A DNA stretch of 47,883 nucleotides from Nanobdellota archaeon (GTDB lineage Archaea; Nanobdellota; Nanobdellia; Woesearchaeales; JBHPGL01). The position numbers and the translations under genes are program-made. Each line of letters starts with the position of its first letter. Positions within the stretch are counted from its first letter, which is position 1. The stretch is taken from NCBI GenBank assembly GCA_042570655.1, contig JBHPGL010000002.1:1-47883 (forward strand), written 5' to 3'. This document shows positions 1,852 to 39,515 of the stretch, in pieces. The notes under the pieces were generated by a model. It was not told where the DNA came from. It saw only the letters and a program-made list of their open reading frames with translations, and did no database searches.

Positions 1852-1998
1852 TTGGGTAGAGTAAATATAGAAATTCCAGATGAAAAGCATAAGCAGGCTA
1901 AAATACATTGCGCTATTAATGATATTTCTTTAAAGGAATTTATAATTCAAGCTGTAATCGAAAAACTTGAGAGGGAATCTAATGAAAAGAAAAAATGA
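1852..1998 (+). CDS. Small ribbon-helix-helix DNA-binding protein (CopG/ParG-like), missing from the ORF track
   Basis: TTG start after GAGGG; MGRVNIEIPDEKHKQAKIHCAINDISLKEFIIQAVIEKLERESNEKKK (48 aa). It has the RHH beta strand (RVNIEI), helix A, and the S-x-x-E-F-I helix B. It overlaps the ATG of the first giant gene. Confidence 0.8.
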   Translation: MGRVNIEIPDEKHKQAKIHCAINDISLKEFIIQAVIEKLERESNEKKK

Positions 1999-4900
1999 AT
2001 TAGCCAATAGAATAGTAATATTTGGTTCAATCATTTTAGCTATAATACTCTTAAGTTCATTATCGTTAGTTCTTTCTAGTTTTGTAACATTTGAAATTAA
2101 TCCAGATCCATTAGTATCAGGAGAAGAGATTTCTGGAAATGCAAATTTAAATTTTAATTCTGATTTCTACCCGAAAAATTCATTAATTGTTTTAACAATT
2201 GATGACCTTACATCAGCACTTTATTTATGGGATTTGATTGAAGGTGAATCACAAAATGGAACATATGGTGAAGAAATTATTGAAGGATATTATGTTGAAA
2301 GTTCATTAGAAGAAATTGATTTAAGTTTATTTAATGTTAATGCACCTGATGAAGGAGAATATGTTTTAACTTTAAGTATTGTTTATGAAGGAGATATTTT
2401 AGACGAAGATTCTACAATTGTTACTGTCGAACCAGCTTCAGAAATGCCGTCATTAACTGTTCCTGAAACTCCTGAAGAACCAGAATTACCCCCAGAACCT
2501 CAAATCCCTCAAGAACCAGAAGTACCAGAACAGCCAGTAAATGAAACAGAAGAACCAGAACTTCCTGCTCAAGACCCGCCAGAACAACCAGTAAATGAAA
2601 CTCAAGAACCAAATGAAACAGAAGAAGTTGTTCCAGTTGATATGGGAATAATTGTTCCTGACTTTGGTGTTCAAGCATTACCAACATATTCAAATTTTGA
2701 TGGAAATACAACAGACTTTTCAGCAGTTCTAGATATTGAAGATGTACTAAACGCTGTTTTAGAAGTAGATGGTATAGGTAAAATTATGTGGACAACAGAT
2801 ATCAATGCTTCAGGAGCAGACTTTGATTCATATGTAACAATATCTGATAATCATATTATGGTTGATATTATAAATCTTGACTCATCTATGAATAATACAG
2901 CAGAGATAACATTCTATACAATATCACAAAATTATGACAATCCAACTCTTTATTGGGATCAAGATGATAATGGTGAATATGGACAATGTGAAGATTGTAT
3001 TTTCTTAAGTGACGATGGACAAAACATAACTTACTTTATTCCGCACTTTACATCATTTAAAATTGGTGAAAGTACTTATTTGGAAATTTGGGACCAAAGA
3101 GATCCAGAAGGCGGAAGTCAAGTTAAACATGTTAATGATTCTGTTATTTTTTACTCAAATTTTAGTTATACAAATACAACTGCAATAGTAAATGATTCAG
3201 GATCTGGTTGTAACATTACATTTAAAACATCAGGAAGTTATGGTCTATGGGACATAATGACTTTTAATGCAACATCAGATTTATATGAATATTCAAGAAA
3301 CTTTACAAATTCAGAACTTGTTTATTATAATGTAAGTTGTTATGATAACGAAACAGAAACATTAGAAGAAATAGATTCAATACAAATTGGTGATCTTGGA
3401 AATTATACAATTGATATAATAACACCGTTTGGTACAGATTTTGAAGCAGCCCAAAATGAATTCTTTGAATTTACAATTAATGTTACATGTAATGCTTTGT
3501 GTGGTCAGATAAATTTAACATTAGATCCGTTTGCAACAGGAGGAAACTTTAATGTATCAACAAAAATGGATTGGCATTCAGCAAATTCCACAACAGGAAA
3601 TCCATATGATGCAAGAACTTCTGGAGGATTCCAACCAACTGCAGATATGTCAGGTGGAGCCTTATCAGGAGATATTGGAGCATTAGCAAATACAGAACCA
3701 ATTATCCATAATGTAACAATTGAAACAGTTCCAGTATTTTATAATGCATTAACATATTGTAAAGCAAACGTATCAGATTTAGAATCAAATATTAATAATG
3801 TACGATTCAATTTATCATCAACTTCAAGAGAATTTATAATTAATGGAACATTAGTAAATGATTGGTATCAAGTAAATTTCTTTGCAAACGAAACAGGAAA
3901 TTGGACTTGTGACGTAATCGCTTATGATGCTTATGGATTAAATGATACATATTCAGTTTTATTTAATGTATCAGATAAATATGATGTAAATAATGGTGTA
4001 GTTCCAGTTGGTAGCGGTAATCCATTTTATACAAACGAATCAAATCCACAATCCTGCTTCTTAAATGAAACAGATACATTCTGTTCAATCACATGGTGGG
4101 TAAATGCAACAGGAGAATTATATACAACATTTGAATTCTTTATTATTGGTGAAGGCGAATATGAAGATAGAAACTCTTCAAAGATTAATGTTACAATAAA
4201 AGGAAATGCTCAACCAACATTAAATGATATTAGTATGCCATCTGTGATCGAAGAATCTAGTAACTTTACAATTACCGCAATTGGAGCTAATGATTTTGAA
4301 CAATCAAATTTAACATTCATATGTTCATATGATTCTAGTCCAAATATGACAAATACAATATGTAATGCAGGTACTACTTTTGTAACCTCTCCACCTTATG
4401 ATCTAACATGTAATGTTACAGCAGATTCAGATCACGAATATAATACCACTTATTGTCTTGTTTATGATGGTGGAAAATATTCAACTGTAGTATCAGATGA
4501 TTATATAGATAATGATTATCCAACGTTAGATTCAATATCATTAGTTCCGTCAACAGGTATGCTTTCAGAATTTGTAGTAACAACATCTATTAATGCAAAC
4601 GATGCTAGTAATGATCAATTGAAAATTAAATGTGGAACCTCTTCTTCAAATTACGATTTATGTGAATCTACTTTAGGAGCACCGCAAAGAAGTTGCACAT
4701 TTAATTCTCCTTGGAGCGATAATAGTGAACATGAAGTATATTGTATAATTGAAGATGAATATAGTTTCACATCATTTGAACGAAATACAAAATTCACAGC
4801 AGATAACATTGCTGCAACTACATTAAGCATTATTGGTGTCGAAGGAGATACAACATCAAAATATTGGGACACTGTAAACAATAATATGACAGTTATTCAA

Positions 4901-7900
4901 TTTAACCTTAATGAAACAGGAGATGTTTGTAGATATAATAATTATGATAGAACATATTCAACAATATCACCTACAAGAGAATGTACTGTTTCAGGTACAA
5001 TTGGAAGTTGTAATGCTTGGGATGTAATAAGAGATCAAATAAATTCTACATTTATTTATGTAAGTTGTAATGACCAATATAATAATGAACAAAATATTAG
5101 TATTAATTTGGATGTATACCTTGGAGTTGATTGGACAAAACCAACAGTAACAACTTCAAATGATGGAGATATATACCTTCCAGGTTATAATGTAACCTTT
5201 AATATTACAGATGTTCCGCAAGGAACATATAAAACTTCACAATATTGTGTTGATAGTGATAATACATGTTCACCTTCAACTGAAATCCAAACAAGTGAAA
5301 ATGTAACCTTTAATACAAGAGGTGTTTGGTATTTAAGATATAATGCAACTGATGAAGCTTTAAATAGAAATGAAACAAAAGCAACAATTGTATTTATTAA
5401 CCAACTTATTGAAATTTCAAACCCAGTATTTAACAATGTTTCTTATGAAAATCATATTATTAATATTTCATTTGACACATTAGAAAACGATTCATCACAA
5501 ACAGTAACTTGTAATTTATATCATAGAAGTAATATTACTGCAGGCGTATTTACAAGTAAAATGATGAATTTAACAAATGGCATTTCAACAAATGGCACAT
5601 TTACTGTTAACTTATCTTTATCTGACAGTTATTCAATCTCAGAACCAGTTCAGTTCTATGCAAATTGTTCCGATACTATGGAGGATGTACAGTCTGATAT
5701 GTACGTATATCAGATCGCTAATAGAGAACCTGTGCAGTCCTCCTTACTCCCAAATCAAACTTGGAAAGAAGACGAATCTTTAATTATAAATTTAAGCGAA
5801 TATTTAATTGACCTTGATGGAGATGCTGTAACATTTAATTCAAGTGGAACAACAAATATTAATGTTGTAATTACAAATGAAATGGCAAATCTAACTCCAA
5901 TTGATAATTGGTTCGGAATTGAATACGTTACATTTGGCATTAACGATACTCTATCAACCAGTAATTTAAGCAACCTAGTTAAATTAACAGTTTATTCAGT
6001 TCCAGACATTTATATGTCAACTTATTCAGGAACAGACTTTGAAGGAATTTCAGAAACATTCTCTGTTGATAAATATGTAAAAATATCAACAGTACTTGAT
6101 TACATACAAAACGTTTCAGCAGGTAACATTACCTTCCTTGATCCAATTACATTTGATAGAGATCTTAATATAGATTACAACGTATCCATAAATTATAATA
6201 GTATTACCATTGATTCAACAGGTGCACCAGAATTAAATGAACCAGCAGAAATCACCTTTGTCGGAGTTACAGAAATTGTAGTAACACCTTGGTTATATAA
6301 AGATGGTGTAAGATGTGATAACACTTCAGATTGCAGCTTTGTATCGATGGATCTTGGAAATGATATATTTAAATTCAATGTAACTTCATTTAGTACATAT
6401 CATATGAACAATTCAAATTATCCACCGACCATGGGTGCAGTTCAAGTTATCCCATCAACAGCATATATACATAACGATTATAATTGTAGTGCGATTGCTT
6501 CTGATGGAGAACAATCAACATTATCATATTACTTTACTTGGTATATTGATTCAGTACAAAATACAACTTGGGATACAACTGTTAATTGTGCAAATGGAAC
6601 AATATGTTATACAGACACCTTAATACCAAGTTATGCAATTAAACATTTTGAAAATTTAACTTGTGAAGTTTATGCGAACGATTTAACATTCAACAGTTCC
6701 AAGAACTCAGATTCAATAACAATCCTAAATAGCCAAACTACATTTGATTTTAATTTAGCTAATCAAAGTCTTTTCAACAATGCAAATTTAACATATGACA
6801 TTAATTGTTCAGATAATGATACAGATACAATAACTTATTATGATGACACTATTTTATTTGATATAAATAGTTCAACAGGATTGATTGAAGATGATCCAGA
6901 TGTAATTGAAACTGGCAATTATTCAATTACAATTACTTGTTCAGATTCATATATTAATACAACTCAATCATTTGTTTATGAAATTAGAAATAGAATACCA
7001 ACAACAACAAATTTAATATTAAATTCAACAGATGATCCTTTAAATAGAACAAGAGGAAATCTATACTTCTACTATACTTATAATGATAATGATAACAATG
7101 CAGAAGTTACAAAAATTATTAAATGGTATAGAGACGATCTCGAAATTGATTATTTAGAAAATCTAACAACAATTGCAAATTCATCAACATTAAAAGGTCA
7201 AACCTGGATAGCTTCTATTTCAGTGTTTGACGGATTTGAATGGAGTGTATTTGGAAATTCATCATCTATAACAATTGAAAACACAGCCCCTGTGTTCAGT
7301 GTACCATTACAAAATCAATCTGTTTACCATAGTGACGAACTTTATTATACAATCTCATGTGATGATGAAGATACAGCAGACACTATGATCTATTATGATA
7401 ATTCACCAATGTTTGACATACATCCGCTAGCAGGTGCAATGAACGATAATCCAAATCAAAGTGAAGTTGGCGTATATAATATAATAATCAATTGTTCAGA
7501 TGGCATGGTAAATGCAACAGATAATTTCAATTATACAATATTAAATTATATACCAGAATCACAAAATCTTATAATATCAAATTCAGATTCATTAAATAGA
7601 ACAAATGGAGATATAATTTCTTATTATGAATATTATGACAATGATAATGATCCAAAATCAGATCAACATATAATTTGGTACTTGAATGATACATTACAAC
7701 CATCATTAGAAAATCTTACATCAATTCCAAACACACAAACAACAAAAGCAGACAATTGGAAATTTGCAGTTAGAGTAAATGACGGACTTGATTGGAGCCA
7801 ATTTGTAAATTCATCATCAATACAAATAGTAAATGCAGCACCTTACTTTGAAATTGATAATCGAACTATGGATGAAGATTCAGTTGAATTCATAAATCTG

Positions 7901-10900
7901 ACTTTTAAATCTGATGATTATGATGGAGATAATCTTGTATGGACTGTTATCCAGGAAAACACAAGCGAAGCAGATTGTAATATTGTTTCAGATAACTTAT
8001 CGATCATACCTCCATTAAACTGGTTTGGCATTGCTTCATGCACAATTAATGTAACAGATGGCGAAAGTACAAATCAAAGTACATTCTATATTAATGTAAC
8101 AAATGTAAACGATCCACCTTCAACAGTAACGTTAACAAATCCAATAGAAATGTTCAATACAAGCAATTACTTTGAAATGTTTAATTGGACAATCGCTACA
8201 GATGTAGATCCAGACACTTTAACATACTATTTAATTATTGATAATAGTCCAACATTTACTTCAACAGATTCAAATTCATCAACATTAAACCTTTATTATT
8301 ATGAAAATCTAACAGAGCTTACAGATAACATTTATTATTGGAAAATTATAGTATGTGATGATGGCACACCTTCACTTTGTAATTCCAGTACAACAAATAG
8401 AACAATGAATATTGATAGAACAGCTCCAGATATTACAATTGATAATCCTCAAACAGATAATAAGTTAGGATATAATGTTAATTTACAGAATACAATAGCA
8501 GATAATACAGCAGGAGCAGTCGGCGTTGATCAAGCATGGTACTTAATATATAATTCAACAGGATCATTAACTTCTTCAGGAACATTATCAGGACCAAGTT
8601 ATGATAGTGTTTGGGCAACAACCTTAAACAATCCTCCAGATGACTATTACACATTAATTGTATATGCAAATGATACTCTAGGAAATGAAGATAATGAAAG
8701 TGTATCATTCTACCTTGATAATACAGTCCCAGCAATAAATATTATTTATCCAAACAATATCAATTTAACAAATGACTTTAACATTGATGTAAGATTAAGT
8801 AATTTAATGTTAGATTATAGTTATTATAACATTACAAATTCAACAGGATATAATTTAAGATCAAACATTACATATAATATTAATGCAGTAGAATATAATT
8901 GGACAGACTTTGCAGAAATAATATCTTGGAACGATGACATATATAATATCACAGTATTTGTTAAGGACGTCTCAGGAAATAATAATACACAGTTTGCAAA
9001 TTTCATAATTGACCAAACACCTCCAAAATATTCAGGAGTTGTAACAACAACACCAATTTATAATGATGTAAATGTAAATTTAAATGTAACTTGGACAGAC
9101 AATCTTGCAGGAATTAAAAATGTAACAATTGAAACAAATGCATCAGGCATTTGGGAATCGACATTAACTTTATACAATAGTGGAAGCGAATATTATATAA
9201 TCATTCCAAGTTCAGCACTTGAAAATCAAGAAGTAGTAGGATGGAGATCTTATTCATATGATACTGCAGGAAATTATAATGAAACCCCAATTTATGCATT
9301 CCAAGTACAGAATAGAATGCCAAACGTTACTTCAACATTCATTACAACAGATGATACATTGAATAGAACATTAGCAAATCTTACATCAAATTATGTTTAT
9401 TATGATATTGATGGTGATGCAGAAAATATGTCTTACATAAAATGGTATTTGAATAATACAGAAATAACAGCATTAGAAAATTCATCAACAGTACTAAATA
9501 CATTTACAACAAAACATGATAGATGGATATTATCAGTAAAAGTACATGACGGTCTTGTGTGGAGCACTTGGTTAAATTCATCAGAAGTAATTATCAATAA
9601 TTACCTACCATTTATTACAAACGTAATATTAAATGCAACAGATCACCCATTTAATAAAACAGATGCAAACTTAGACATTTATTATCTATATAATGATTAT
9701 GATAACGATCCAGAATCAGATTATCACATTATTTGGTATTTAAACGAATCAATCCAACTAGGTCTTGAAAATCAAACCATAATTTTAGATGAAAATACTA
9801 CAAAACATGATATTTGGAAAGCTAGCATTTCAGTGTTTGATAATGAAGAATGGAGTTTATATGTAAATTCAAGTATAATACAAATATTAAATACTGCACC
9901 AATACATACAACTCCAACAATAACTCCAAATCCAGCATATAGACTTGACAATTTATTATGTAACAATCATTCTACATTTGATCAAGATAATGATCCAGTA
10001 ACTAATAATTATAGATGGTTTAGAAATAATACATTGCTAGCTGAAACATCTAATACATTACCAACAGGAAACTTTGAATATGGAGATTATATTATTTGTG
10101 AAATAACTCCATTTGATCAGGAAGAATATGGAGTTCCTAAAAACAGTTCAGCAATAATGATCCAAAATCATGCACCATTATTAACAGCTATGATAATGCA
10201 GCCAACAGCAGGTAGAAACAATACTTATGTAAACTTAACAAGTTACAATGCAACAGATGTTGATTTACATGATCTTACTTTAATGTGTGGTAATCAATCT
10301 GGAACTTATAATTTATGTACAAGTACTGCAGGACAACCTCAAAGAGAATGTCAATTTAATACAATATGGACAGACGACATTCCACATTCAATCTATTGTG
10401 TTGTAAATGATGGAATAGAAAATTCAAATGAAATTGAAATTGCATTCTTAGCAGATAATACAGCACCAATTATGGATACAAATGATATAATTAAACTTGA
10501 CTCAGATTACACTTCTCCTTATTGGGACGCAGTTAACAACGGATTTACCAAATTATACATTCAAGGAGAAATAAATATGGATTGTAGATGGAACAATAGT
10601 GATATTTCATATGGCGAAATGTTAAATGCTACAGAATGTACTATGATAGATGAAAACACTACATGTAACTTTGGAAATCTGGTACAAGCAAGTGCATATC
10701 CAGGATATTATATAGCATGTCAAGATCAATATGGAAATCAACAAAATAGTACTACTAATATAAATATACCAACATTCGGTGTAGATTGGACAGATCCAAA
10801 TGTAACAGATAATATTAATGAAACTTATCTTTATACACCACTATTTAATGTTACCATGTATGAAGATGATTATCCAACAGGTACAACTGTAACAACTTAT

Positions 10901-13900
10901 TGTTGTGAAGACACAACAAATTCATGTACACCAAATATAGCATGTGACGATGGAGCAGGCGGATGGAATATTGTTAATTTCACATTTACTACATCTCAAA
11001 GGGGTGTTAGATATTTAAGATATTATGGAATGGACGAAGCAGGTAATACTCAAACATTAGTAAGTAGAGTAGTAAATGTTAAGGAAGGAATTACAATTAG
11101 TTCATATGAATATATTGATTATGTTGAACATGTATTTAATGTAAAAGCAAATGCATCGCAACCAGATCAATTAGCAATAACATGTAATTTGTGGCATAGG
11201 TTAAATAATACAGGTGGATATACTTCAAAAGCCATGAACCTTATTTCAGGACCTAGTTATAATGGTACTTATTCAGTAAATATCTCAAATTCAGATGGAT
11301 ATTCAACATTTGATATTGTAGAAATGTATGTAAATTGTATTGACCCAACAGAAAACTTTAATGGTTCATTAGATTATCATCAAATCCCTGACATTGCTCC
11401 ATATGTACCAGATTTAACATATCCATTTAACAACACTTATATTTATTGGCCAAACATTACTTTAAGATTTAATTCATCAGACATTGATCTAGATACTGTA
11501 ACATATTATGTGTTTGGTGATACAGTTGATGCAACTACATTAATTTATTCAGGAACAAATGATAATTATTTATGGGATCCTGGAACAGGGACTTATTTAT
11601 GGAAAGTAATTGCAGGAGACTTATACTTAAATTCATCTGCTTCAGATATCCACGAATTTACATTAAATACTACAGATTCAATACCTCCAACAACAACAGA
11701 TAACAGTACTGATAATTGGCAAACCTGGTTTGTAAATAATATTGTTATTGCACTAAATGCATCAGACTACGAATTCGGAGTTAACCATACAATGTATTGT
11801 GTAGATTATGATTATAATGCAGGTTGCACACCAAATATATTAAGTCCTGACAATTTTACTTCACTAACAATTTCATGTGCAGCAAATGAAGCATGTGTTA
11901 AATATGTTAGATATTATAGTGTTGATTATGCTAACAATACTGAAACAACACAACAAAGCCTTCCAATATATATTAACGGTGCTGATGGAGCAATTACAAA
12001 TTCAAATTCTACAGATTGTGTTTTGAAAAATACAATTAATATGGACAATTCAGATTGTCAAAATTCATATAAAGATGATGTAACAATGCAAAATAGTGTA
12101 GATATAAATTCAAGTGTTAAATCCTCTACAGAAATCGATTGTAACATAATAAGATCAGATTTCAATTATAGTTATTGTCAAAATTCAAACATTTATGATT
12201 CAGACATTATCTTTAGTGGAATTATTAATTCAATCATGGATAATATGACATTAATTGATGCAAATTATTCTGATAGTAATGATACTAACTCAGTACAATA
12301 TAGCGGTACTTTAATTGTAGATCCATCAATCTTGTTTAATAATAGTTATTATGGAGATAATGAAGTATATGATTCAAATGTTTCAAACTCAATACTTAAT
12401 AGTTCAATAATAGTTAATAGTGATATTAACTTTTCATACCTTGCAGAAGATTCATATATCTATAACATGACAATATTTAATTTATCAATTGACGGATGGA
12501 CAATTACAGGATCAGGATATTTAATTTATAATGGAACTACATACAACGAATCAAATAGTTTATTAGATATTTTCTGTGGAGATGGAATTTATAATTATCC
12601 TAATAAGGGAGCATTTGAAACATGCAACTCCTGTCCAGCTGATGTTGGTGCATGTCCTGTTGAAAGTAGAGGTGGTGGCGGCGGTCCAACAGTTGCTTGC
12701 AAACCTGATTGGAACTGTTCAGATTGGGGTGATTGTTCAGCTGTTGGAGAACAAACCAGAACATGTACAGATGCAAATGGTTGTTCAAGAACAAATTATA
12801 AAGTAACATACACTGGAGAAGGCGATGTCTTCTTTACAGAAAAAGATATCTTAACAATGGTAGAGACAAGAGAATGTACCCCGTATGTAGGAGAATCATG
12901 CCATGATCAGAAAATGAACCAAGATGAAACAGATATTGATTGCGGCGGAATTAGATGTAAGAAATGCGGCATAGGTATGAATTGTTTAACAAGAAACGAT
13001 TGTACTTCATTATTATGTGAAAATAATAAATGTATCGATGAAGATATTACAAAAGATTATTGTAATGATGGAATCTTAAATCTTGAAGAAACAAGCATAG
13101 ATTGTGGTGGAGCATGCGGTGATTGTGAAATTATTATCCAAGGATTGGAAGAAGAGTTCAAAACAAATACTTCATATACAATAAAAGTAATTAATTCAAA
13201 AGATTATCTTGTTGAAGGATTAAAATTAACAATTACACTTCCAGATGGATCTTTAATTGACATGATATCAAATGACCAAGGAGAATTATCTTTATTAATT
13301 ACACAATCAGGAAATGTTAATTTATTATTTGAAAAGTTAGGTCATTTAACAGAAGAATCTTCTATTATAGTTGAACCAAAACTAATTGACCAACCAGCTG
13401 GACCATCAATATTTAGTAGAATATATTCAGCAGTTAAACAAGCAGCAAATTATATTGTTCAAAATTATAAAATTACAATACTTCCAATTGTAATTGCAAT
13501 TATACTTGCATTAATGATTGTTAGGATACATGAATTTGGTAAGTTAAGATCATTTGCAATCAAAGAATTTAAAGCAGGATTTAGTAAAGAAAAAGTTCAC
13601 AATCATATGAAGAGAAAAGGAATCAAGAAACGTGAATTTGTTGAAAGATATATCAATAGATTAAGAAAAAAGAAATATGGTCGAAGAGATCGATTGAGAA
13701 AGGTTAAAAAATTAGCAGAAGCATCTGACGATGAAAAAATCGTAGAAGTCAAAAAGTCAAAACATTCATTTGATAAGAAAACCGATAAAATTGATTCAGA
13801 TTGGGGTAAGTTCCGAAAAACAATGAAAAAGGAACTTAAACATGAAAAAAAAGAAATTAAAACTGATAAAATTAAGGAAATCAAACGTCAAATTAAAGTT

Positions 13901-13966: not shown

Positions 13967-13970
13967 AAAA

Positions 13971-29777: not shown

Positions 29778-29938
29778 GCTTTGATGAAAAAGTCACCCGG
29801 TTTATGCACAAAGTGCACCTTTTATTGGGTCAGTGAGGACCGTTTGTCATACAGGCCTCTAGTACGGGAAGGTTACAGTCGTTAAAAGGCATTTGCCAAT
29901 CAACACGACTGTTCCGAACGAGACTTTTTCAACAGAGT
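29778..29938 (+). ncRNA. Candidate multi-stem structured RNA of unknown family inside the surface-protein cluster
   Basis: 17-nt closing stem GCTTTGATGAAAAAGTC / GACTTTTTCAACAGAGT (one mismatch, G-U pairs on +). Internal arms ACCCGGT/ATTGGGT capped by TGCAC-AAA-GTGCA, GAGG/CCTC, and ACAGTCGT/ACGACTGT capped by GGCA/TGCC. Strongly GC-enriched relative to the flanks. Confidence 0.6.
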
Positions 29939-29989
29939 GAAAAAATAAAAAAACAAAAATGAAAAAATATATTCATGAGGTGGAATAAA

Positions 29990-32900
29990 ATGAGAGGAAA
30001 AATAAATAAAAACCAAAGAACAACATCAAGCAGCTTAGCTGGTGTTATGAAAAACAAAATGATAATGGTCCTTTCATTAATAATCCTATTAACTCTCTGT
30101 AGCGTTAGCTATGTTTTAGCTGTTGATAACTTAATGGCTTTACAAGGTAATGTTCAGGAAAATGGTTTAGCATTACAATCAGGAGATTTAAGAGTATATA
30201 TCTATGATGCAGATACAGGTGGAGCAACTGTATATGATAGTACAACTGATTTTAATGGTAATATTGTAAATGGTCAATTTGATGTTATGTTAGGTTCAGG
30301 ATCAAATGAACTTATACTAGAATATGGTAAATATTATTATTTAGATATGGCAATAGAAGGTCAGAATTTAAATTTTTCAGGTAATGATAGGCAGATCTTC
30401 CAAAGTGGTGTAGGGAATATTAGTAATGAAGATATTGACGAATCAGCAGCTATAGATCCAAATAAAATCAGTGAAGAATGGGTAGACGAATCAGGCGATT
30501 CAATGTTTGGTGACCTTAATATGACCACAGGAAATGATATTATCCTTAGAGATGCTTCTATCCAAGCAATTAATGCTGATGGAACTGAAAAAGCTATATT
30601 GACAACAAGTTCACCAGGTGGTTCTGCAGTCGGAACAACTATTCAAGCTTTTGGTAATGCTATTTTATCATTGTTGTCTTACTCAGGTGATATTGAAATT
30701 AGAAGTTCAAATGGTGGAGACATTTTATTACAAAAAACAGGTGGTAATGTTGGAATAGGATCATTTGCACCAACCGGACCTTTCGATATTAACAATTCAC
30801 AACCAAGAATTCATTTAATGGAAATAGATACTACAGACGAAAATTTTAGAATTCAGGTTGATTCTGGTGATCTTGGAATAGGTACTATTGCCGATTCAGG
30901 TGCAGGATATTCAGAAAAATTAATAATTCAACAAGATGGTGATGTAGGAATTGGAACAGCTTCACCATCTGCACCTTTAACAGTTATGGATTCTGGTGAA
31001 GAATTAGCAATATTTAATTCAACAGATAATGACGGTTATATTAAAGCAGGTTATTCAGCTTCTTATGCAATTTTAGGTGGTGATTCTGGTGGCGGTTATA
31101 TAGACAGTTCTATTGCTCCATTTAGGATTGAAATTGCTAACGATGAAAAATTAAGGATATTAGGTAGTGGTAATGTTGGTATTGGTACTACTACACCTCA
31201 AAACACATTAAATGTAGTTGGTGACCTTAATGTAACTGGAAATACTTATCTTGCTAACATTAATATTTCAGGTGTTCAGTTTAATGCTGGTGATGTAAGA
31301 GCAGATGGAATATTTTATGGAAATGGTTCAGGTTTGTTTGACATTCCAGCTAGTGGTATTTTAGAAGAATGGGTTGATGTTGCAGGCGATACAATGTCTG
31401 GAGATCTTAATATGGGTACTAACGATATTAACGGAGTAGGAAATTTATATGCAAATAATATAAATCTCTCAACTGGTTCAAGCAGATTAGAAATAGGAAT
31501 AACCCCTGCATCAAAACAAACTTTTACATCTTGGTTGCATGAGTTTGGTGATACAGGTGGATCAGGTATTACTCAGAATATTTATTACTTAACTGGATAC
31601 AAATATAGAAGAGATGGAGCAGGGTTACATATTGAATTATCAAATGGAAAATTCGATTTAAGAACAGCTTCTTCAGGTCTTAATAATTCAGCTGCAACTT
31701 TAACTTCTAAATTTCTTGTGGAGAATGGAGGAAATGTTGGTATTGGAACAACTAGTCCAGAAGGAATATTACAATTAGGGGATGGAACAGGAACACCAGA
31801 ATTAGTGATAGACTCTGCATCTGCTTCAACAGGAAAAATCACTTTCCGTGATAATCTTGGAGATGATAGGGGAGTGATAAAATACGACCATAGTTCAGTC
31901 CCAGAAGGAATTAAAATTAGTGCTGGAGGTTCTAGTGATTTTGTAACTTTTACAACAGATGGTAATGTTGGAATAGGAACAACTACACCATCTGCACCTT
32001 TAACAGTTATGGACTCAGGTGAAGAATTAGCAATATTTAATTCAACAGATAATGACGGTTATATTAAAGCAGGTTATTCAGCTTCTTATGCTATATTAGG
32101 TGGTGATTCTGGTGGAGCATATTTAGATGCATCAATAGGACCATTTAGGATTGAAGTTGCAAATGATGAAAAATTAAGGATATTAAATAGTGGTAATGTA
32201 GGGATTGGAGATGCAATGGGAACATCTTCACCAGCATACATATTCCACATCAATGATTCAACATCACCACAATTAATAGTAGAAGACTCAACAAGTGGTG
32301 TACAGACAAGGGTTTATTCGAATGAGAATGAAGGGATGGTTGGAACAAGATCAGATCATCCTTTTAAAATAACAGCAGGTAATTCAGTAAAAATGGTTAT
32401 TGACGATGCTACCGGTAATGTAGGAATTGGAACACATACACCACAAAATACATTAAATGTTATTGGAGATCTTAATGTAACAGGAGCTACTTATCTTAAT
32501 GATATAAACATCTCAGGTGTTCAATTTAATGCAGGTGATATTACTGCTGAAAATATTATAGCAACCGAAGATATTTCCGTAGGAGGAAATTTAAGTATAT
32601 TAAATTCTGATGTTGATAGGGGTGCAATATTTAAAGCAACTGGCGATAATAATAGAATCGGTGAAATACTTATGTATAATACAAATCTATCAGAAAATAC
32701 AATGCAATTATTTTCTATTACACCAACAGGTACTGGATATTCTTCTACAAATAAAGCAGGGATTAACATGTATAACACTGATATTTTAAATGATTCTACA
32801 AACTACGAATTATTTATTGTTAGAGCTATGGGTACTAATTACGCAATTTATTCTTCGAAGGGTGGAACTGGAAGTTTAAGACCAATACAATTAAGTGCGG

Positions 32901-34312
32901 TTGCTTACAATGATCCTCAATTATATCTTAACACAGACGGTAATGTTGGAATAGGAACATCCACACCACAAAATAAATTAAATGTAATTGGAGATCTAAA
33001 TGTAACAGGAGCTACTTATCTTAATGATATAAACATTTCAGGAGTACAGTTTAATGCAGGCGATGTTAGAGCTGACGGAATATTTTATGGAAATGGTTCA
33101 GGTTTGACAGATATTCCTGCAGATGGCATTTTAGAAGAATGGGTAGATACAGCAGGAGATTCTATGTCTGGTGACCTTAATATGACAGTCGGTAACGATA
33201 TTTTAATTACAGATGCAGCAATAAAATCGATTGCAGATACAGGTGATGAAAAAGCTGTTTTATCCGTTAATTCACCAGGTAGTACGGCGGTTGGAACCAC
33301 TCTACAATCTTTTGGAACAAGTGCATTACAATTGATCTCATATTCAGGTACAGTAGATATTAGAAGTTCTCAAGGCTCAGATTTATTATTACAAAAAGAT
33401 GGTGGTAATGTTGGAATAGGTACATCAAATCCTACAAGACCATTAGAAATAGTATATGATGAAGATGATACTTCCCCCGGTAGTTTAAATTTTCCAACAA
33501 TTTTAATTCACAATGAAAATATTTCAGAAGATGTTTATGCTGGTATTGAATTTTCATCCTCAGATACAGCTGGTGGAAGACGTGCAGGCCCAACAATCAT
33601 GAGTATATTTACAAATAAAACAACTATTGGAGTGGATGGTGAATTAGCTTTCTATGTAAGAGATATGACAACTGGTGGTGGAGTAAAGCAAGCAATGTAT
33701 ATTGAAAAATCTGGAGATATTGGTATGGGAACAGCTTCACCTACAGCACCTTTAACATTACTAGATGCAGATGATGAATTGGCAATATTTACTTCATCTG
33801 ATGCAGATGGTTATATTAAAGCAGGTTATTCAGCTTCTTATGCTATTCTTGGTGGTGATTCAAGTGGAGGTTATATTGATTCTTCTATAGCACCATTTAG
33901 GATTGAAGTTGCAAATGACGAGAAATTAAAGATATTAGGTAGTGGTAATGTAGGAATAGGAGATGCAATGGGAACATCTAACCCTGCATATCAATTTCAT
34001 ATCAATGATTCAACACAACCACAATTAATAGTTGAAGATTCAACAAGCGGTGTTGAGGCAAGAATCCTTGCAGATAATGATAGGGCCTATATGGGAACAA
34101 AATCAAACCATGATTTAAGAATTACAACAAATAATGCTGCAGCTATGACCATTCAAGCTGATGGCGATATTGGAATTGGAACAAATTCACCAACCCAAGA
34201 CTTAACAATTGATGGAGAAGTAAACATAACAGATACAAACACGTTGTATATAGGTGGAGGAGAAATATATTGGAACGACACTTCCAATCAACTGGTAATA
34301 AAGGTAAGTTAA
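29990..34312 (+). CDS. Secreted mosaic fibre/adhesin with GNVGIG repeats (tail-fibre/MAT-like)
   Basis: Signal peptide; N-terminal LQG...IYDA..GG...NGQFDVMLG...YL domain; ~12 G(N/D)(V/I)G(I/M)G motifs; two FYGNGSGL motifs; three GD(S/T)MxGDLNM motifs. SD-like GAGGTGG before the ATG at 29990 (alternative starts 29975 and 30047). Confidence 0.8.
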   Translation: MRGKINKNQRTTSSSLAGVMKNKMIMVLSLIILLTLCSVSYVLAVDNLMALQGNVQENGLALQSGDLRVYIYDADTGGATVYDSTTDFNGNIVNGQFDVMLGSGSNELILEYGKYYYLDMAIEGQNLNFSGNDRQIFQSGVGNISNEDIDESAAIDPNKISEEWVDESGDSMFGDLNMTTGNDIILRDASIQAINADGTEKAILTTSSPGGSAVGTTIQAFGNAILSLLSYSGDIEIRSSNGGDILLQKTGGNVGIGSFAPTGPFDINNSQPRIHLMEIDTTDENFRIQVDSGDLGIGTIADSGAGYSEKLIIQQDGDVGIGTASPSAPLTVMDSGEELAIFNSTDNDGYIKAGYSASYAILGGDSGGGYIDSSIAPFRIEIANDEKLRILGSGNVGIGTTTPQNTLNVVGDLNVTGNTYLANINISGVQFNAGDVRADGIFYGNGSGLFDIPASGILEEWVDVAGDTMSGDLNMGTNDINGVGNLYANNINLSTGSSRLEIGITPASKQTFTSWLHEFGDTGGSGITQNIYYLTGYKYRRDGAGLHIELSNGKFDLRTASSGLNNSAATLTSKFLVENGGNVGIGTTSPEGILQLGDGTGTPELVIDSASASTGKITFRDNLGDDRGVIKYDHSSVPEGIKISAGGSSDFVTFTTDGNVGIGTTTPSAPLTVMDSGEELAIFNSTDNDGYIKAGYSASYAILGGDSGGAYLDASIGPFRIEVANDEKLRILNSGNVGIGDAMGTSSPAYIFHINDSTSPQLIVEDSTSGVQTRVYSNENEGMVGTRSDHPFKITAGNSVKMVIDDATGNVGIGTHTPQNTLNVIGDLNVTGATYLNDINISGVQFNAGDITAENIIATEDISVGGNLSILNSDVDRGAIFKATGDNNRIGEILMYNTNLSENTMQLFSITPTGTGYSSTNKAGINMYNTDILNDSTNYELFIVRAMGTNYAIYSSKGGTGSLRPIQLSAVAYNDPQLYLNTDGNVGIGTSTPQNKLNVIGDLNVTGATYLNDINISGVQFNAGDVRADGIFYGNGSGLTDIPADGILEEWVDTAGDSMSGDLNMTVGNDILITDAAIKSIADTGDEKAVLSVNSPGSTAVGTTLQSFGTSALQLISYSGTVDIRSSQGSDLLLQKDGGNVGIGTSNPTRPLEIVYDEDDTSPGSLNFPTILIHNENISEDVYAGIEFSSSDTAGGRRAGPTIMSIFTNKTTIGVDGELAFYVRDMTTGGGVKQAMYIEKSGDIGMGTASPTAPLTLLDADDELAIFTSSDADGYIKAGYSASYAILGGDSSGGYIDSSIAPFRIEVANDEKLKILGSGNVGIGDAMGTSNPAYQFHINDSTQPQLIVEDSTSGVEARILADNDRAYMGTKSNHDLRITTNNAAAMTIQADGDIGIGTNSPTQDLTIDGEVNITDTNTLYIGGGEIYWNDTSNQLVIKVS
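30963..32115 (+). repeat. 130-nt near-identical direct repeat within the fibre gene (30963-31092 and 31986-32115); a third diverged copy at ~33737-33870
   Basis: Manual alignment gives 4 mismatches in 130 nt, all synonymous. It encodes PSAPLTVMDSGEELAIFNSTDNDGYIKAGYSASYAILGGDSGG. Confidence 0.9.
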
Positions 34313-34313
34313 A

Positions 34314-37300
34314 ATGAGAGATACAGGTAAAATGAAATTACCAAAAATAATAACAATATTTGCATTATTCATTTTGTTAGTGACAACAGTAATGGCAGCA
34401 ACAATATCAAATTGTCAAACAATTAGTACACCTGGCACTTATGAATTAATAAATGACATAAGTGCAACCGCTACTTGTTTAACTGTATCTAACGACGATA
34501 TTCTTATTGATTGTAAAGGTTATACTATTACATATGCAAATACAAGTTCAGGAAATGGCATCTATACTTTAGGTAATGATAATGTAACAATTCAAAATTG
34601 TAATATTAGACAATATAAAACTCCAGGATCTTATACAATTTATTTAAGTGGAAATAATAATTATGTATTAAGAAACAATATTACTAATTTAGATTCAACT
34701 TCAATTTATTTTGCAAGTTCAGGAAATATAATAAATAATATTATTAATAATTCATATGCTTTTTATGATCAATACGGAATAAATTTATATGCATCGTCAG
34801 GAGGTAATATATTTAATAATACTATTTATTCCAAAACTAAAGGTATACATATATTCGTACATTCGGGTGAAACATTAAAATATAATAAAATTAATAGCGA
34901 TTATTTTCCAATTACATTTGAAACTAATGGTGAAGCTCATTGTAACCATAATATTGATACAACAAATACTTATTATGACACCCCTATTTATTTTAATAAA
35001 ACTGATTATTATAAATTAGAAGATACAGATAATATTGGTGCAATTATTTTATGTGGTTCAAGTCATGCTTTTATTGATAATGTATCGTTAGATAAAGCAG
35101 GAATATTTATTGCGCAATCAGAAAATGTAACAATTAAAAATAGTGATATTAAATCAAATTCATCAGCTATATTTCTTGATAAATTCACAAATAATTTTAC
35201 AATTGAAAATAATGAATTAAACTCTGGAACAACAGCAGCTGAATGTGGGGGAATTTATTCAAGGAATCAATTTGATTATGGTAAAATATTAAATAATAAT
35301 ATTACATGTTTAAGTACAAATAATTGTTATGGTATTTATTTCGCAACTTATTCAAATGATAATAATGTTACTGGCAATATTATAAAAGACTTTAGATACG
35401 GATTTTCAATTACAACTAACGGTTACAATAATTTATTATATAACAATTATTTCAGAGTAAGAAATGCATATGCTACTTTCACAGGAACTTCGTATTATAA
35501 TGATTTAAACATTACAAATACTACTGCTACAAATGTTATGGGAGATAATAATATTGGTGGAAATTATTGGGGTTTTTATAATAGTACAGGATTTTCAGAT
35601 ACTTGTACTGATGCTGACTTAGATAATTTTTGTGATTCTCCTTTAGTATTAAACACCAATAATACAGATTACTTACCTTTAGCACATGAATCTCCACCAA
35701 CCCATGATACTCCTGCATTAAGTGCCAGTTCAATTAATAATCTAACGTCAGATAATTTAACTGTTTACAACCAATCCACTAGTGATAAAAATGGAGATCC
35801 AGTTAAAAATATTATTAATTGGAAAAAGAATTCACAATCAAGATATATAATTAACACTCCATTTGAAGCAGGTTCAACAAGTTCATATTCAAAAGATTAT
35901 TCTGGTTATGGAAATAATATTCAACCAGATACAAGTATGTGTACATATTTAAGTAATGGTGGAATTGATGGAAAAGGAGCTTATTACTTCCCAGGTACTT
36001 GTGGATTAAAAGTCCCTGTATCAACTTCAACTGCATCTTATACAGATAGAATGACAGTAGCAGCTTGGATAAATATATCTGATTACACTCTTCATAGACC
36101 TGTTGCAAATATTTATCAAGCCTCTAATTATCCAATCCGATTTTATGTGATTCAAACATCAGGTAAGTTAACATTGCAAGGTTATAATTCCTCTTTTGAT
36201 GCTTACTCAAGCATAACATCAACAAGTACAGTTACACCAAACCAATGGCACCATGTCGCATTTACTGTTGGCGATGGATTAGGAACAGTATATATAGATG
36301 GTCAGAATGAATCTTCTGGATTAATAGTGGGTGATTTGCATGCACAAACCTCAGTACCTTTAAGAATAGGATATGATACCGGAGGAGCTCCTTTATATAT
36401 GAAAGGTTACATTGACGAATTTATTTTTACAAACATTACTTTATCATCAGAACAAATTGCTGCATTATATAACAACAGAACAGATTTAATAGTTAGTCAA
36501 GAAACTTCGAAAAGTGATTCATGGCAAGCTTGCATAACTCCAAATGATGGAACACAAGATGGTCAAACAAAATGCAGTAATACTTTAACAATTCAAGGAC
36601 CTCCAACACATACAACTCCATTATTGCAATCATCATCAAATACAAATAAATCAGATGAAAATATAACAGTATACCCTCAAAATCTAGTTGATCCAAACGG
36701 TCATGATGTTAAAAAGATAATTAGTTGGAAAAAAGATACTAATCCTATAGAAATTCTAAATATTCCTTTTGAAGGCGGTTCAAATACTACATATACAAAA
36801 GATTATAGTGGATATAATATTCCAGTAACAGTAAACTATACATCATGGCAAAGTAATGGCGGTTATGATGCAAAAGGAGCATATTTATTTAATGGTATAA
36901 ATGATTATATAGCTCTGCCAGATAATATTTATGATACCCATACAGAAGGTGTCATCAGTATGTGGGTAAATCCAAAAGAATATAGCGGATATCCTTTTGC
37001 ATTAGCTAATTCAGTCTCAGGTTCTAATATCTTTCATTTTCAGATAAGAAATGACTCAGCAAATTGCGCTTCTGGATCTGTATATTGTTTGCATGTTGGG
37101 AGGTATGTTGGTGGTCTAGGTACAAGGACTACTTATGGTTCAATTACTATTCCATTAAATACATGGACACACATTGCATTTTCAGTCAATTCAACTGGTT
37201 CAAATACGTACATTAATGGAGTAAAGGATACTAATGTTTATCATAAGCTCTTTAGTTTAACTGACAATTCTTGGTTTGATAATTTTGCAACAACAACAAA

Positions 37301-39515
37301 TACTTATACCATAGGTGCAGGTAGAGGAGCATTTTTTCAAGGAGCTTTTAACGGCTCTATAGACGATGTAAGAATATATAATGTTTCATTGTCTGATCAA
37401 CAAATAACATTATTAGCTCAAAATAGAACAGATATGATAGCTAGCCAAGATACTACTGTTGGTGATGTTTGGCAAGCATGTGTAACTCCTAATGATGGTT
37501 TTGAAGATGGAACAGAACTATGCAGTAATACCTTAAATGTATTAGCATCAACTGAAGGTCCATCTGGAACATATTTAACTAATTCAACTATTAGCCAAAG
37601 ATTTAGTTTTTTAAATGTAAGTTCCACTCTTTATGGCCTTGACTTTAATTATAATATTGCTGCATTAGAAGTTGATGCATCAGAATTTACCTGTACACCT
37701 TCAGCTTTTATTCCAGATGTAGAAAACCATTATTCAACAGTTGATAATGGTGATGGCACTTGGACAACTATATTCCAGCCAAATGGAACTTATGGTAAAG
37801 ATGCAGTTATTGCAATCGGAGATGATCATTTTAGTCAAAATTTAAATTATGGTAATGATGAAAGGTTAAGGACAAGAATGGTCTCAACTTCCACATATGT
37901 TGAAAGATCATATATTGAATTTGAAATAGATATACTTGATACAGAAAATATTATAAACGCAAAATTAGATTTATATAAAGGTTTAAATTCAGGTACTCCA
38001 CCAACATATAGTACTGGCATTTATAGAGTTACTGAATCATGGGATGAATCAATTATAAAAGGTACTAATTATCCTAGTAATGATTCAATTTCTTATGATA
38101 GCATTTCAGTAATATCAACTCTTAAATGGTATAATTGGACAATAACAAATCTTGTTCAAGAATGGGTAAATGAAACATATCCTAATTATGGTTTATTACT
38201 TCAAAAAGATCAAACAGGAGGATTTGGTTGGCATCAATATAATTCATCAGACGCAGGAGGATCAAGACCAATACTAAGTATCACATATGTACCTAATTGT
38301 GATAAAGGCATATTTACTTCACAAGTATTCGATACAAATGGAACACAAGATTTCAAAAACATAACCTGGACAGAATTTGAAGGAGAACTTCCTAATAACC
38401 AACAAACAGAATCAAGATCAGTATCTGAAAATATTGATATGTCAAACAATATTTTCTTGTTGCATCTAAATAACAATCCGGCATTTAATGAAAACACTTC
38501 TTATCTAAAAGATTTTAGTGGAAGTGGATACAATTGTAATCAAAGCACAGGTTCAAATAAAGCTGAATACACAGATAATAGTAAATTTACTAGAGCATTA
38601 AAATTAGATGAAAATGATGTTTATGAATGTGGAGATATTGACGAAATTGACGGTGCAACAGAATTAACCTCTACATATTGGATAAATTGGTCAGGAGATG
38701 GTTATAGTGTTATTGGGGCAAAATGGAGTACTAATACTGCTTATTGGTTAGATATTAATTCAGGTAATGTACGGGTTGGTTGGGATCCAGTCACACTTGA
38801 ACAAGCTAATGTAGAGTTACTACCAAATGTATGGGCTCATGTTGCAATTGTTTATAATGGTTCTAAAACAGTCACAGCTGATAGATTTAAATTTTATATA
38901 AATGGAACAGAAGTACCTTCCTCAGGATCTACACCTCCAACACAACTATCTGATGATGGAACAGAACCATTTAGATTTGGATATTCAGGAGGTAATCAAG
39001 GACCAAACTCTACATTGGACGAATTCGCACTATGGGATACAGCTTTAACTGCAACAGATGTATCAAATTTATATAAAAGAGGATCAATCAATCTTGACCT
39101 AAAAGCAAGAACTTGTGATGATGCTTCATGTAGCGGAGAAGCATGGGTGGATATTGACGACCAAGGTTACCAAGCAAAATCTTTATCTCTTGACGACAAC
39201 CAATATTTCCAATATAAATTTTATTTTGAAAATAGCACTTCACAAATCTTCCCAGAACTTTATAATGTAACAGTTACGTATGAAGCAGTATCTACAGGAT
39301 GTGAACCTCCAGGATCAGGTGATTGGAACATTACAGATATATCTTGTATTGTTCAAGATCAAACATATGATGTTGACGGAGATATTATAGTTAATGCAGG
39401 TACAACCTTAGTATTAAACGGTACAACTAGATTAAACTTCTCAAGTACAAACCAATATATCTATGTTAATCAAGGTGGCGAAATACAAATATCAGATACA
39501 GCTTCATTAAATTAA
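34314..39515 (+). CDS. Secreted multidomain lectin/adhesin-like protein: beta-helix + 3 LamG + DNRLRE(CBM96-like) domain
   Basis: Signal peptide; NosD-like beta-helix ending GGNYWG...DYLPL; LamG motifs WHHVAF, WTHIAF and WAHVAI; DNRLRE-like segment (KDAVI...NYG...RSYIEF...WDE...ITNLVQEWV...NYGLLL...RPILSITY). No C-terminal TM helix. Starts 1 nt after the fibre stop. Confidence 0.82.
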   Translation: MRDTGKMKLPKIITIFALFILLVTTVMAATISNCQTISTPGTYELINDISATATCLTVSNDDILIDCKGYTITYANTSSGNGIYTLGNDNVTIQNCNIRQYKTPGSYTIYLSGNNNYVLRNNITNLDSTSIYFASSGNIINNIINNSYAFYDQYGINLYASSGGNIFNNTIYSKTKGIHIFVHSGETLKYNKINSDYFPITFETNGEAHCNHNIDTTNTYYDTPIYFNKTDYYKLEDTDNIGAIILCGSSHAFIDNVSLDKAGIFIAQSENVTIKNSDIKSNSSAIFLDKFTNNFTIENNELNSGTTAAECGGIYSRNQFDYGKILNNNITCLSTNNCYGIYFATYSNDNNVTGNIIKDFRYGFSITTNGYNNLLYNNYFRVRNAYATFTGTSYYNDLNITNTTATNVMGDNNIGGNYWGFYNSTGFSDTCTDADLDNFCDSPLVLNTNNTDYLPLAHESPPTHDTPALSASSINNLTSDNLTVYNQSTSDKNGDPVKNIINWKKNSQSRYIINTPFEAGSTSSYSKDYSGYGNNIQPDTSMCTYLSNGGIDGKGAYYFPGTCGLKVPVSTSTASYTDRMTVAAWINISDYTLHRPVANIYQASNYPIRFYVIQTSGKLTLQGYNSSFDAYSSITSTSTVTPNQWHHVAFTVGDGLGTVYIDGQNESSGLIVGDLHAQTSVPLRIGYDTGGAPLYMKGYIDEFIFTNITLSSEQIAALYNNRTDLIVSQETSKSDSWQACITPNDGTQDGQTKCSNTLTIQGPPTHTTPLLQSSSNTNKSDENITVYPQNLVDPNGHDVKKIISWKKDTNPIEILNIPFEGGSNTTYTKDYSGYNIPVTVNYTSWQSNGGYDAKGAYLFNGINDYIALPDNIYDTHTEGVISMWVNPKEYSGYPFALANSVSGSNIFHFQIRNDSANCASGSVYCLHVGRYVGGLGTRTTYGSITIPLNTWTHIAFSVNSTGSNTYINGVKDTNVYHKLFSLTDNSWFDNFATTTNTYTIGAGRGAFFQGAFNGSIDDVRIYNVSLSDQQITLLAQNRTDMIASQDTTVGDVWQACVTPNDGFEDGTELCSNTLNVLASTEGPSGTYLTNSTISQRFSFLNVSSTLYGLDFNYNIAALEVDASEFTCTPSAFIPDVENHYSTVDNGDGTWTTIFQPNGTYGKDAVIAIGDDHFSQNLNYGNDERLRTRMVSTSTYVERSYIEFEIDILDTENIINAKLDLYKGLNSGTPPTYSTGIYRVTESWDESIIKGTNYPSNDSISYDSISVISTLKWYNWTITNLVQEWVNETYPNYGLLLQKDQTGGFGWHQYNSSDAGGSRPILSITYVPNCDKGIFTSQVFDTNGTQDFKNITWTEFEGELPNNQQTESRSVSENIDMSNNIFLLHLNNNPAFNENTSYLKDFSGSGYNCNQSTGSNKAEYTDNSKFTRALKLDENDVYECGDIDEIDGATELTSTYWINWSGDGYSVIGAKWSTNTAYWLDINSGNVRVGWDPVTLEQANVELLPNVWAHVAIVYNGSKTVTADRFKFYINGTEVPSSGSTPPTQLSDDGTEPFRFGYSGGNQGPNSTLDEFALWDTALTATDVSNLYKRGSINLDLKARTCDDASCSGEAWVDIDDQGYQAKSLSLDDNQYFQYKFYFENSTSQIFPELYNVTVTYEAVSTGCEPPGSGDWNITDISCIVQDQTYDVDGDIIVNAGTTLVLNGTTRLNFSSTNQYIYVNQGGEIQISDTASLN

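Follow-up and report, generated by a model that had tools for sequence, protein, structure and literature searches.

In cultured nanohaloarchaea, the accessible part of PMC10266531 describes giant, membrane-anchored proteins with arrays of immunoglobulin-like (Ig-like) domains for which host binding was proposed. These "SPEARE" giants (SVXNc_0300, 9409 aa; BNXNv_0298, 8880 aa) are presented there as strain-specific proteins with Ig-like/fibronectin-like repeats that would bind the host surface. The same portion of the paper reports, for Ca. Nanohalococcus occultus SVXNc, an operon (SVXNc_0801-0813) that encodes LamG proteins together with a 1693-aa trimeric-autotransporter-like adhesin, and an expansion of LamG across DPANN archaea is noted in the available text of PMC5498576. 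In Bdellovibrio, the MAT fibres serve prey recognition, that is, they are used by a small cell to recognise another cell, and their N-terminal domain was proposed to bind a cell-surface element (accessible part of PMC10769870). Finally, MITEs (miniature inverted-repeat transposable elements) have been reported in archaea, and the available sections of the census in PMC11602168 place a Woesearchaea genome among those with the highest archaeal MITE densities. Here we describe a cluster of five genes, including two encoding giant proteins, in 47,883 nt of DNA (G+C of ~30%; this whole stretch is called the window) from a Nanobdellota archaeon assembly (1.64 Mb, 195 contigs, 79.6% completeness), and compare it with these systems.

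An initial annotation, made from the letters of the window, had read the cluster as one multi-component host-attachment appendage. We consider instead that the locus is probably an island of surface-protein genes, specific to its lineage, in a DPANN (Nanoarchaeota-type) archaeon, with a parallel repertoire of adhesins and a MITE inserted among their genes. The five open reading frames (ORFs), all on the + strand, stand in one row in the order RHH-like (ribbon-helix-helix), giant 1, giant 2, fibre and LamG protein, with a summed product length of ~12,440 aa. Along the row, the first two genes overlap by 17 nt, and the following junctions measure 4 nt, 197-212 nt (the gap) and 1 nt, which confirms the five co-oriented, tightly packed genes with a single gap that had been noted initially. 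The features of the cluster are as follows.

1852..1998 (+): RHH-like gene, 48 aa, TTG start, an ORF call whose end runs 17 nt into giant 1
1982..13966 (+): giant 1, 3994 aa, ATG start (a TTG at 1967 is also possible)
13971..29777 (+): giant 2, 5268 aa, the scaffold of giant 1 with inserted NosD/beta-helix and LamG cassettes
29769..29777 (no strand): left presumed 9-bp target-site duplication, AGAAGATAA, spanning the end of giant 2 (its last two codons and the stop)
29778..29939 (+): MITE copy of 162 nt (the "structured RNA" of the initial annotation), with an imperfect terminal inverted repeat, a three-way-junction core and an extra hairpin in the P2 loop
29940..29948 (no strand): right presumed target-site duplication, AAAAAATAA, with the same offset as in copies with perfect duplications
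29990..34312 (1440 aa) or 29975..34312 (1445 aa) (+): secreted fibre gene, the ATG at 29990, behind GAGGTGG, being the likelier start
34314..39515 (+): secreted LamG protein, 1733 aa, with NosD/right-handed beta-helix, three LamG_3 and CBM96/DNRLRE domains

Hydropathy profiles show two hydrophobic segments, and no more, for each of the giants: the first is N-terminal and the second lies close to the C-terminus. In giant 1, these are residues 6-39 and 3825-3855 (transmembrane, TM), the latter followed by a 139-aa Lys/Arg-rich tail; in giant 2, they are residues 9-39 and 5105-5139 (TM), followed by a Lys/Arg-rich tail of 129 aa. The fibre and the LamG protein have a single hydrophobic segment, which is N-terminal, and no anchor. 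Thus, the hydropathy profiles agree with the initial description of two C-terminally anchored proteins with cytoplasmic tails and two proteins with a signal but without anchor. N-X-S/T sequons are abundant in both giants, with 181 in giant 1 and 218 in giant 2. The two giants are collinear paralogues made of blocks that are 36-42% identical (the best reaching 42% identity over 1296 columns), and 75% of giant 1 aligns to giant 2. In turn, residues 386-956 and 1251-1561 of giant 2 resemble the LamG protein, 58% of which aligns to giant 2 and which is paralogous to the cassettes inserted there. Since giant 2 corresponds to the giant 1 scaffold plus beta-helix/LamG cassettes such as those of the last gene, the island has grown through duplication and the shuffling of cassettes.

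Pfam recognised one Big_9 domain per giant and, additionally in giant 2, NosD/beta-helix, LamG and CarboxypepD_reg domains, while neither giant has a VirB4/TraG-like ATPase, protease or nuclease domain (Pfam, E <= 0.01). NCBIfam gave no match on the C-terminal 490 residues of both giants, and a search of giant 1 among 5.8 billion proteins returned only repeat- or domain-level matches to other giants. We also observed, immediately external to the membrane anchors (window positions 12500-13000 and 28300-28850), modules rich in Cys that repeat a "..DETDIDCGG.C..C" motif; they have no family match, are kept between the giants with 81% DNA identity over 293 nt and are partly common to other giants of the same genome (on contigs C61, C3 and C1). 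Where the window has direct repeats (60-88% identity), these are ordinary repeats of domains. A target of a diversity-generating retroelement was rejected, as the assembly has no PF00078 reverse transcriptase and no repeats of the template/variable type.

The fibre protein, whose 1440-aa form agrees with the protein database call, consists of a signal peptide, a conserved N-terminal domain of ~100 aa and repeated GNVGIGT-type segments. Its designation as a fibre held up: residues 257-338 match Bdellovibrio Bd2133 (PDB 8OND, E 1.3e-8), and PHROG tail-fibre families match it as well (phrog_9942, E 5.2e-38; phrog_18345, E 4.6e-32). By sequence search, 1707 relatives at E <= 0.001 were found among 8000 scored candidates, many of them carrying PF13884 (S74) and two of them named "tail fiber domain-containing"; the best non-self homologues are 24-28% identical. 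No S74 chaperone domain (PF13884) and no other Pfam domain was detected in the fibre itself, which therefore falls in the non-S74 type. Finally, residues 1125-1445 modelled as an intertwined homotrimer with a score of 0.92, against 0.00 for the best of three controls, the model runs agreeing in at least 97% of contacts with a partner predicted local distance difference test (pLDDT) score of at least 92. In the calibration of the modelling tool, the mark was reached by 21 of 30 solved homomers and by none of 23 single chains. These results suggest that the fibre may be an intertwined homotrimer, but since related trimeric fibres have already been solved, passing this mark may reflect likeness only and is not proof.

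For comparisons across genomes, we used genomes of the same order as the source, each in a different family, so that no close relative is among them for fine-scale synteny. The most conserved part of the fibre is its ~100-aa N-terminal domain, which is 37-52% identical in seven homologues and which in 10 of 150 genomes forms the N-terminus of proteins that otherwise differ. It models as a beta-sandwich (pLDDT 70.1), and a search with this fold in the PDB gave no match at E <= 0.001 (best E 0.04). In the literature searched for tail fibres together with DPANN or episymbionts, we found no description of such fibres in DPANN.

In its own genome, the cluster stands beside many other giant-protein loci: 24 stop-to-stop ORFs of at least 1400 aa together occupy 13.5% of the assembly bases, the largest encoding 10,855 aa. 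Several of these large ORFs have modules and the signal/anchor/basic-tail topology in common with both giants. Among the large frames are C1:12347-44911 (-) with 10,855 aa, C19:2-18022 (-) with 6007 aa, C3:17128-34821 (-) with 5898 aa and C18:2047-18552 (+) with 5502 aa; some of the giant ORFs have no C-terminal anchor. Comparisons of the homologues of the fibre, of giant 1 and of the N-terminal domain of the fibre did not reveal any orthologous RHH, giant, fibre and LamG synteny. At the loci that carry the N-terminal domain of the fibre (eight in six genomes), three have neighbours sharing domains with the giants or with the LamG protein. Together, the many giant loci and the absence of orthologous synteny in these comparisons do not bear out the idea of one multi-component appendage.

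A part of the cluster does recur. Homologues of the RHH-like protein were found in 57 of 150 other genomes of the order, often as tandem pairs, while the gene has no paralogue in its own genome. A strand-helix-helix pattern is visible in its sequence; further Pfam matches were to DUF6290 and to ParG (16.9 bits, under the cut-off of 21.4), the match to RelB has an E of 0.0089, and the PHROG match is HicB-like. We inspected the neighbourhoods of the 14 best loci, which come from other families of the order (loci within L281-L301). In seven of them, the gene directly downstream of the RHH homologue encodes a protein of 395-3245 aa with an N-terminal hydrophobic segment, and six of these seven proteins have a C-terminal TM segment and four have domains in common with the giants. 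For comparison, ORFs of this kind have a base rate of 6.3% in the genome under study. With respect to conserved synteny, then, the RHH gene directly upstream of a large anchored protein recurs in half of these loci, but the full set of RHH, giant, fibre and LamG genes was not found. 

What fills the space between giant 2 and the fibre gene is a MITE, that is, a non-autonomous DNA transposon, and not a dedicated regulator or a part of the system. As expected from the structured RNA that had been proposed there, the segment 29778-29974 folds better than its shuffles (z of -4.1, with 1 of 200 shuffles as good), but it is not specific to the locus, being one of 30 dispersed copies with transposon hallmarks. 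With Rfam 15 at the gathering threshold, the gap element has no match (the sole match in the window is a signal recognition particle (SRP) RNA elsewhere), and at E <= 10 the gap element and eight other copies gave chance-level matches only. BLAST against its own genome revealed that the element is repeated. A covariance model scored 130.5 bits on the gap element (29785-29933) and found 30 copies in the genome, as well as 1-8 copies in each of eight other genomes of the order (5 of 150 genomes in one sample and 4 of 150 in a second); because the model was built from 11 own-genome copies, these distribution figures are lower bounds. The copies are ~110-220 nt long and contain no ORF. The first 18 found are all intergenic, and the 13 core copies of the genome are oriented to their neighbours in both ways, with 7 sense and 6 antisense. 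One antisense copy lies just past the 3' end of the 5898-aa gene mentioned above.

Traces of transposition are seen in one comparison genome (G238). There, three loci have copies that are 98.6-100% identical over 142-144 nt in unrelated flanks, and each of the three copies ends in perfect inverted repeats of 18 bp and is flanked by a clean direct duplication of 9 bp. The end sequence of the MITE has 21 matches in this genome, against 2 for a control pattern. Copies of the genome under study have a 10-14-bp terminal stem, extended by imperfect pairing. Over 50 copies from nine genomes, the 9-bp flanking duplication is perfect in 10 and matches in at least eight of nine positions in 19, compared to 0.45% and 4.5%, respectively, of 2450 mismatched-flank controls. 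The copy in the window sits on the stop codon of giant 2; without it, this stop and the start of the fibre gene would lie ~40-50 nt apart. We also observed two 49-nt remnants (G238:C57:20017-20065 and G238:C75:10095-10143) that consist of the two 18-bp MITE ends only, 13 nt apart, and appear to be internal-deletion derivatives. In addition, an own-genome subfamily (C9:6930-7092, C25:12479-12647 and C33:12574-12744) combines the MITE ends, a P2 hairpin with an inserted GGTTTATGCAC..GTGCACC hairpin and CAGTGAG with a different internal domain, so that the MITE is modular.

An autonomous element with the same ends was found neither in the own genome, by a pattern search of distant ends in an assembly that is 79.6% complete in 195 contigs, nor at five lone ends in G238, which proved to be divergent MITE copies. 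A pair of ends 1.6 kb apart in the own genome does not have the core motif and was taken as chance. The own assembly contains no match to PF07282, PF01609 or PF00872, and a TnpB/omega-RNA reading was rejected for want of PF07282. DDE_Tnp_1 has one match in G238, on a contig without MITE ends, and four in another comparison genome (G091), with none in the own genome or in two others (G247 and G071); a Mutator-type transposase was found in none of these five genomes. A viral origin found no support either: a 19-nt pattern hit more than 118 IMG/VR stretches, and none of the 80 loci made from them matches the covariance model, the pattern being too unspecific for more. A literature search for MITEs with DPANN names, which did not extend to the supplementary catalogue of PMC11602168, returned no description of this family.

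The core of the element is unusually conserved. It forms a three-way junction made of a covarying P1, a GCCnG..nGGC hairpin, CAGUGAG, a variable hairpin domain with three covarying closing pairs, CGAACGA and P1'. In the consensus from 11 MAFFT-aligned copies, 20 of 38 predicted pairs have compensatory changes. In the model-fitted alignment of 47 matches, which leans towards the covariance model, 94.9% of cells pair (69.3% when shuffled, 30-43% with slid partners) and 37 of the 38 pairs change on both sides. G.U cells number 87 and A.C cells 21, a count that is biased by the fitted alignment and by the choice of strand. Covariation in the terminal stem is expected of co-evolving transposon ends; that of the internal hairpins and the G.U excess are not so expected and hint at selection on one single strand, be it RNA or DNA. 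No consistently placed TATA-like box was seen ahead of the 30 copies.

Taking these observations together, the anchored giants of the island would hold lectin and Ig-like modules at a long distance from the cell, and the fibre and the LamG protein would be secreted adhesins that bind glycans of a host cell or of a substrate, the four being a repertoire of adhesins at work side by side and not the parts of a fixed machine. The RHH protein might regulate the downstream giant gene or genes, and the MITE landed on the stop codon of giant 2, widening the spacer between giant 2 and the fibre gene. Host attachment is plausible within this scheme; a single assembled appendage is unsupported. Several observations weigh against our interpretation. 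Most of both giants has no recognisable domain in Pfam, and giant 1 has no match among PDB sequences at E <= 0.01; the "Ig-like array" is therefore largely an assumption, and of the Ig/cadherin arrays named by the initial annotation, one Big_9 domain per giant is documented while the bulk is unmatched. The ParD match of the RHH-like protein (E 2.9e-5, 24.8 bits) lies under the cut-off of 27.3, and the genes 3' of the other RHH homologues include T2SSE-type ATPases in 3 of the 14 loci (one Pfam-confirmed), DHH in two and beta-CASP in one, so that the family is not specific to giants. The linkage of fibre and LamG genes is not kept either: five of the eight loci with the N-terminal domain of the fibre do not have giant- or LamG-like neighbours, so that, taken as a whole, the combination is not a conserved system. 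For the MITE copy of the window, AGAAGATAA and AAAAAATAA match at 7 of 9 positions, which 21% of the mismatched-flank controls also reach and which is not significant alone. Finally, 1.64 Mb at 79.6% completeness leads to an estimated full genome of ~2 Mb, which for an obligate episymbiont is large.

Three other explanations deserve to be weighed. In the model of the initial annotation, the anchored giants are the stalks of one appendage and carry the docked fibre and LamG protein as adhesins at their tips. The tight packing of the co-oriented genes would suit such an assembly, as would the conserved N-terminal domain of the fibre, which is of the kind proposed to bind a cell-surface element (accessible part of PMC10769870), and the three of eight N-domain loci that adjoin large proteins sharing domains with the giants or the LamG protein. 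Yet orthologous synteny was not found, and while ORFs of at least 1400 aa lie at many loci, there is one such fibre among 28 compared ORFs of at least 1250 aa. Moreover, a transposon insertion parts the fibre and LamG genes from the giants, apparently without loss, and we regard this model as distinctly unlikely. It is somewhat easier to think of the four proteins as general envelope or nutrient-capture proteins, forming an S-layer-like coat or binding and processing polysaccharides through their beta-helix, CBM and LamG domains, so that host attachment would not be required. NosD/beta-helix, CBM96/DNRLRE and LamG are indeed carbohydrate-binding or -processing folds, the LamG protein has sequence matches in the PDB to 4QVS, an "S-layer domain-containing protein" (E 1.1e-6), and to 5HON, an extracellular arabinanase (E 1.1e-5), a gene for an Alg9-like membrane glycosyltransferase lies just upstream, and the large share of the assembly held by very large ORFs fits a coat function. 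However, no catalytic domain reached significance and, to our knowledge, giants of 4-5 thousand residues with a single anchor are not typical lattice-forming S-layer proteins. The fibre relatives of solved structure, in addition, serve prey recognition according to the available text of PMC10769870. This explanation thus appears unlikely to us.

The remaining alternative concerns the MITE, which could have been exapted to act at the RNA level within the operon, as a processing, stabilising or termination site that uncouples the anchored giants from the secreted proteins. Covariation of the internal stems, seen in the unfitted as well as in the fitted alignment and not at the ends alone, argues for it, the surplus of G.U relative to A.C cells is a hint of a single functional strand, and the copy in the window lies in sense, 8 nt behind the stop codon, with T-runs after its hairpins. 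Against this stand the two orientations of the copies, the lack of a conserved upstream promoter and the biases of the G.U count, and we hold such an exaptation to be unlikely. In a wider form, the MITE core would be a functional RNA module spread by transposition through DPANN genomes and, separately, the RHH-anchored giant pair that recurs across families would be conserved as a regulatory unit that switches surface proteins in Nanoarchaeota; we judge this very unlikely. If true, at this locus the MITE would cut or insulate the transcript of the giant genes from the fibre and lectin genes, and its core could be a new small self-cleaving or protein-binding (e.g. L7Ae/K-turn-like) motif. We retain the surface-protein island with a MITE insertion as the preferred interpretation.

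As to the source organism, a DPANN (Nanoarchaeota-type) archaeon is supported by two markers of the window. The nearest matches of the leucyl-tRNA synthetase LeuRS (44858-47497), at 58-66% identity, are metagenome-assembled genomes (MAGs) titled Nanoarchaeia, Woesearchaeota, Pacearchaeota or Nanoarchaeota, and this check through leuS, suggested initially, thus gave the expected DPANN origin. The other marker is the following feature, outside the cluster.

41845-42120 (+): archaeal SRP RNA, Rfam RF01857, 133.3 bits, full length

LeuRS (+ strand) has a bacterial-type editing domain (PF13603), and after the DPANN matches come many bacteria and some Asgard MAGs at ~47-52% identity; the enzyme may perhaps be bacterial-type in this lineage. 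Upstream of the cluster lie the 3' part of a gene for an Alg9-like/GT22 membrane glycosyltransferase (2-895, +), which could be related to the many glycosylation sequons, and a gene for an MBF1-like HTH_3 protein with an HVO_2718-like N-terminus (912-1415, -). An ORF of 91 aa (39591-39866, +), co-oriented and 75 nt 3' of the LamG gene, is very hydrophobic, with about three membrane-spanning stretches by eye; it has no match in Pfam or PHROG and might be part of the transcription unit of the cluster. Further downstream, two HIT-domain genes lie side by side, and the product of the first has at its C-terminus a Glu/Lys/Asp-rich low-complexity repeat with a 9-33-nt periodicity (43015-43231, +).

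How does this locus compare with the systems described so far? Like the nanohaloarchaeal SPEARE proteins, the giants belong to a DPANN cell and combine a signal peptide, a giant ectodomain and a membrane anchor, here defined by hydropathy. They differ in that SPEARE proteins have a VirB4/TraG-like ATPase, as re-analysed in the accessible part of PMC10266531, whereas Pfam detects none in the giants, which end in 129-139-aa Lys/Arg-rich cytoplasmic tails instead, and in that two paralogues stand here in tandem with an RHH gene overlapping the first. Beyond repeat domains, the giants and SPEARE have no detectable sequence relationship. As in the operon SVXNc_0801-0813, with which we compared the locus by its published description, LamG surface proteins stand beside a fibre-type adhesin of ~1400-1700 aa in a DPANN archaeon. 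In contrast to that operon, the lineage is another one at the phylum level and the fibre is of the tail-fibre/MAT type, not an annotated autotransporter or pyocin knob. The initial view that the combination is undescribed was thus too strong, as the available part of PMC10266531 already contains both anchored giants with Ig arrays and an operon in which LamG proteins go together with a trimeric-autotransporter-like adhesin.

The fibre itself resembles most the MAT NS74 fibre Bd2133 of Bdellovibrio bacteriovorus, with an invariant N-terminal domain, a long beta-helical fibre that is predicted to be trimeric, a variable tip and no S74 chaperone, although it is found here in an archaeal cell and in one copy, compared to 21 in Bdellovibrio. 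That its N-terminal domain has no credible fold match in the PDB echoes what the accessible text of PMC10769870 states for the MAT N-terminal domain. A Bdellovibrio-MAT-like, putatively trimeric fibre in an archaeon suggests that phage-type fibres are a solution to cell-cell recognition shared by small predators and symbionts.

The gap element shares with prokaryotic MITEs, as described in the available sections of PMC11602168, its size of ~110-220 nt, the lack of an ORF, terminal inverted repeats, 9-bp duplications, an intergenic location, multiple copies, a patchy distribution and near-identical copies within one genome. What sets it apart from these elements is the covarying three-way-junction core, and no cognate transposase was found. 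With its three-way junction, its short conserved strands and the GA...GA(A) strands that flank the base of a variable helix, the core bears a resemblance, and no more than that, to the hammerhead ribozyme and to K-turns. Unlike the hammerhead, it has no Rfam ribozyme match at E <= 10 in nine copies, reads CAGUGAG and not CUGAUGA, and has no unpaired cleavage-site nucleotide, its last P1 pair being covarying. The sole non-coding "component" of the proposed apparatus is a transposon insertion, which corrects a tempting over-reading of the locus; at the same time, such a conserved and covarying core makes the MITE a candidate for an RNA-level function.

Altogether, for a DPANN archaeon this is an ordinary adhesin island, whose protein set fits a pattern already in print for cultured DPANN episymbionts. 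To this pattern the locus adds modest new points, namely the recurring RHH-giant pair, which in several families offers a concrete regulatory handle on adhesin control in these archaea, the MAT-like fibre in an archaeon and the structured core of the MITE.

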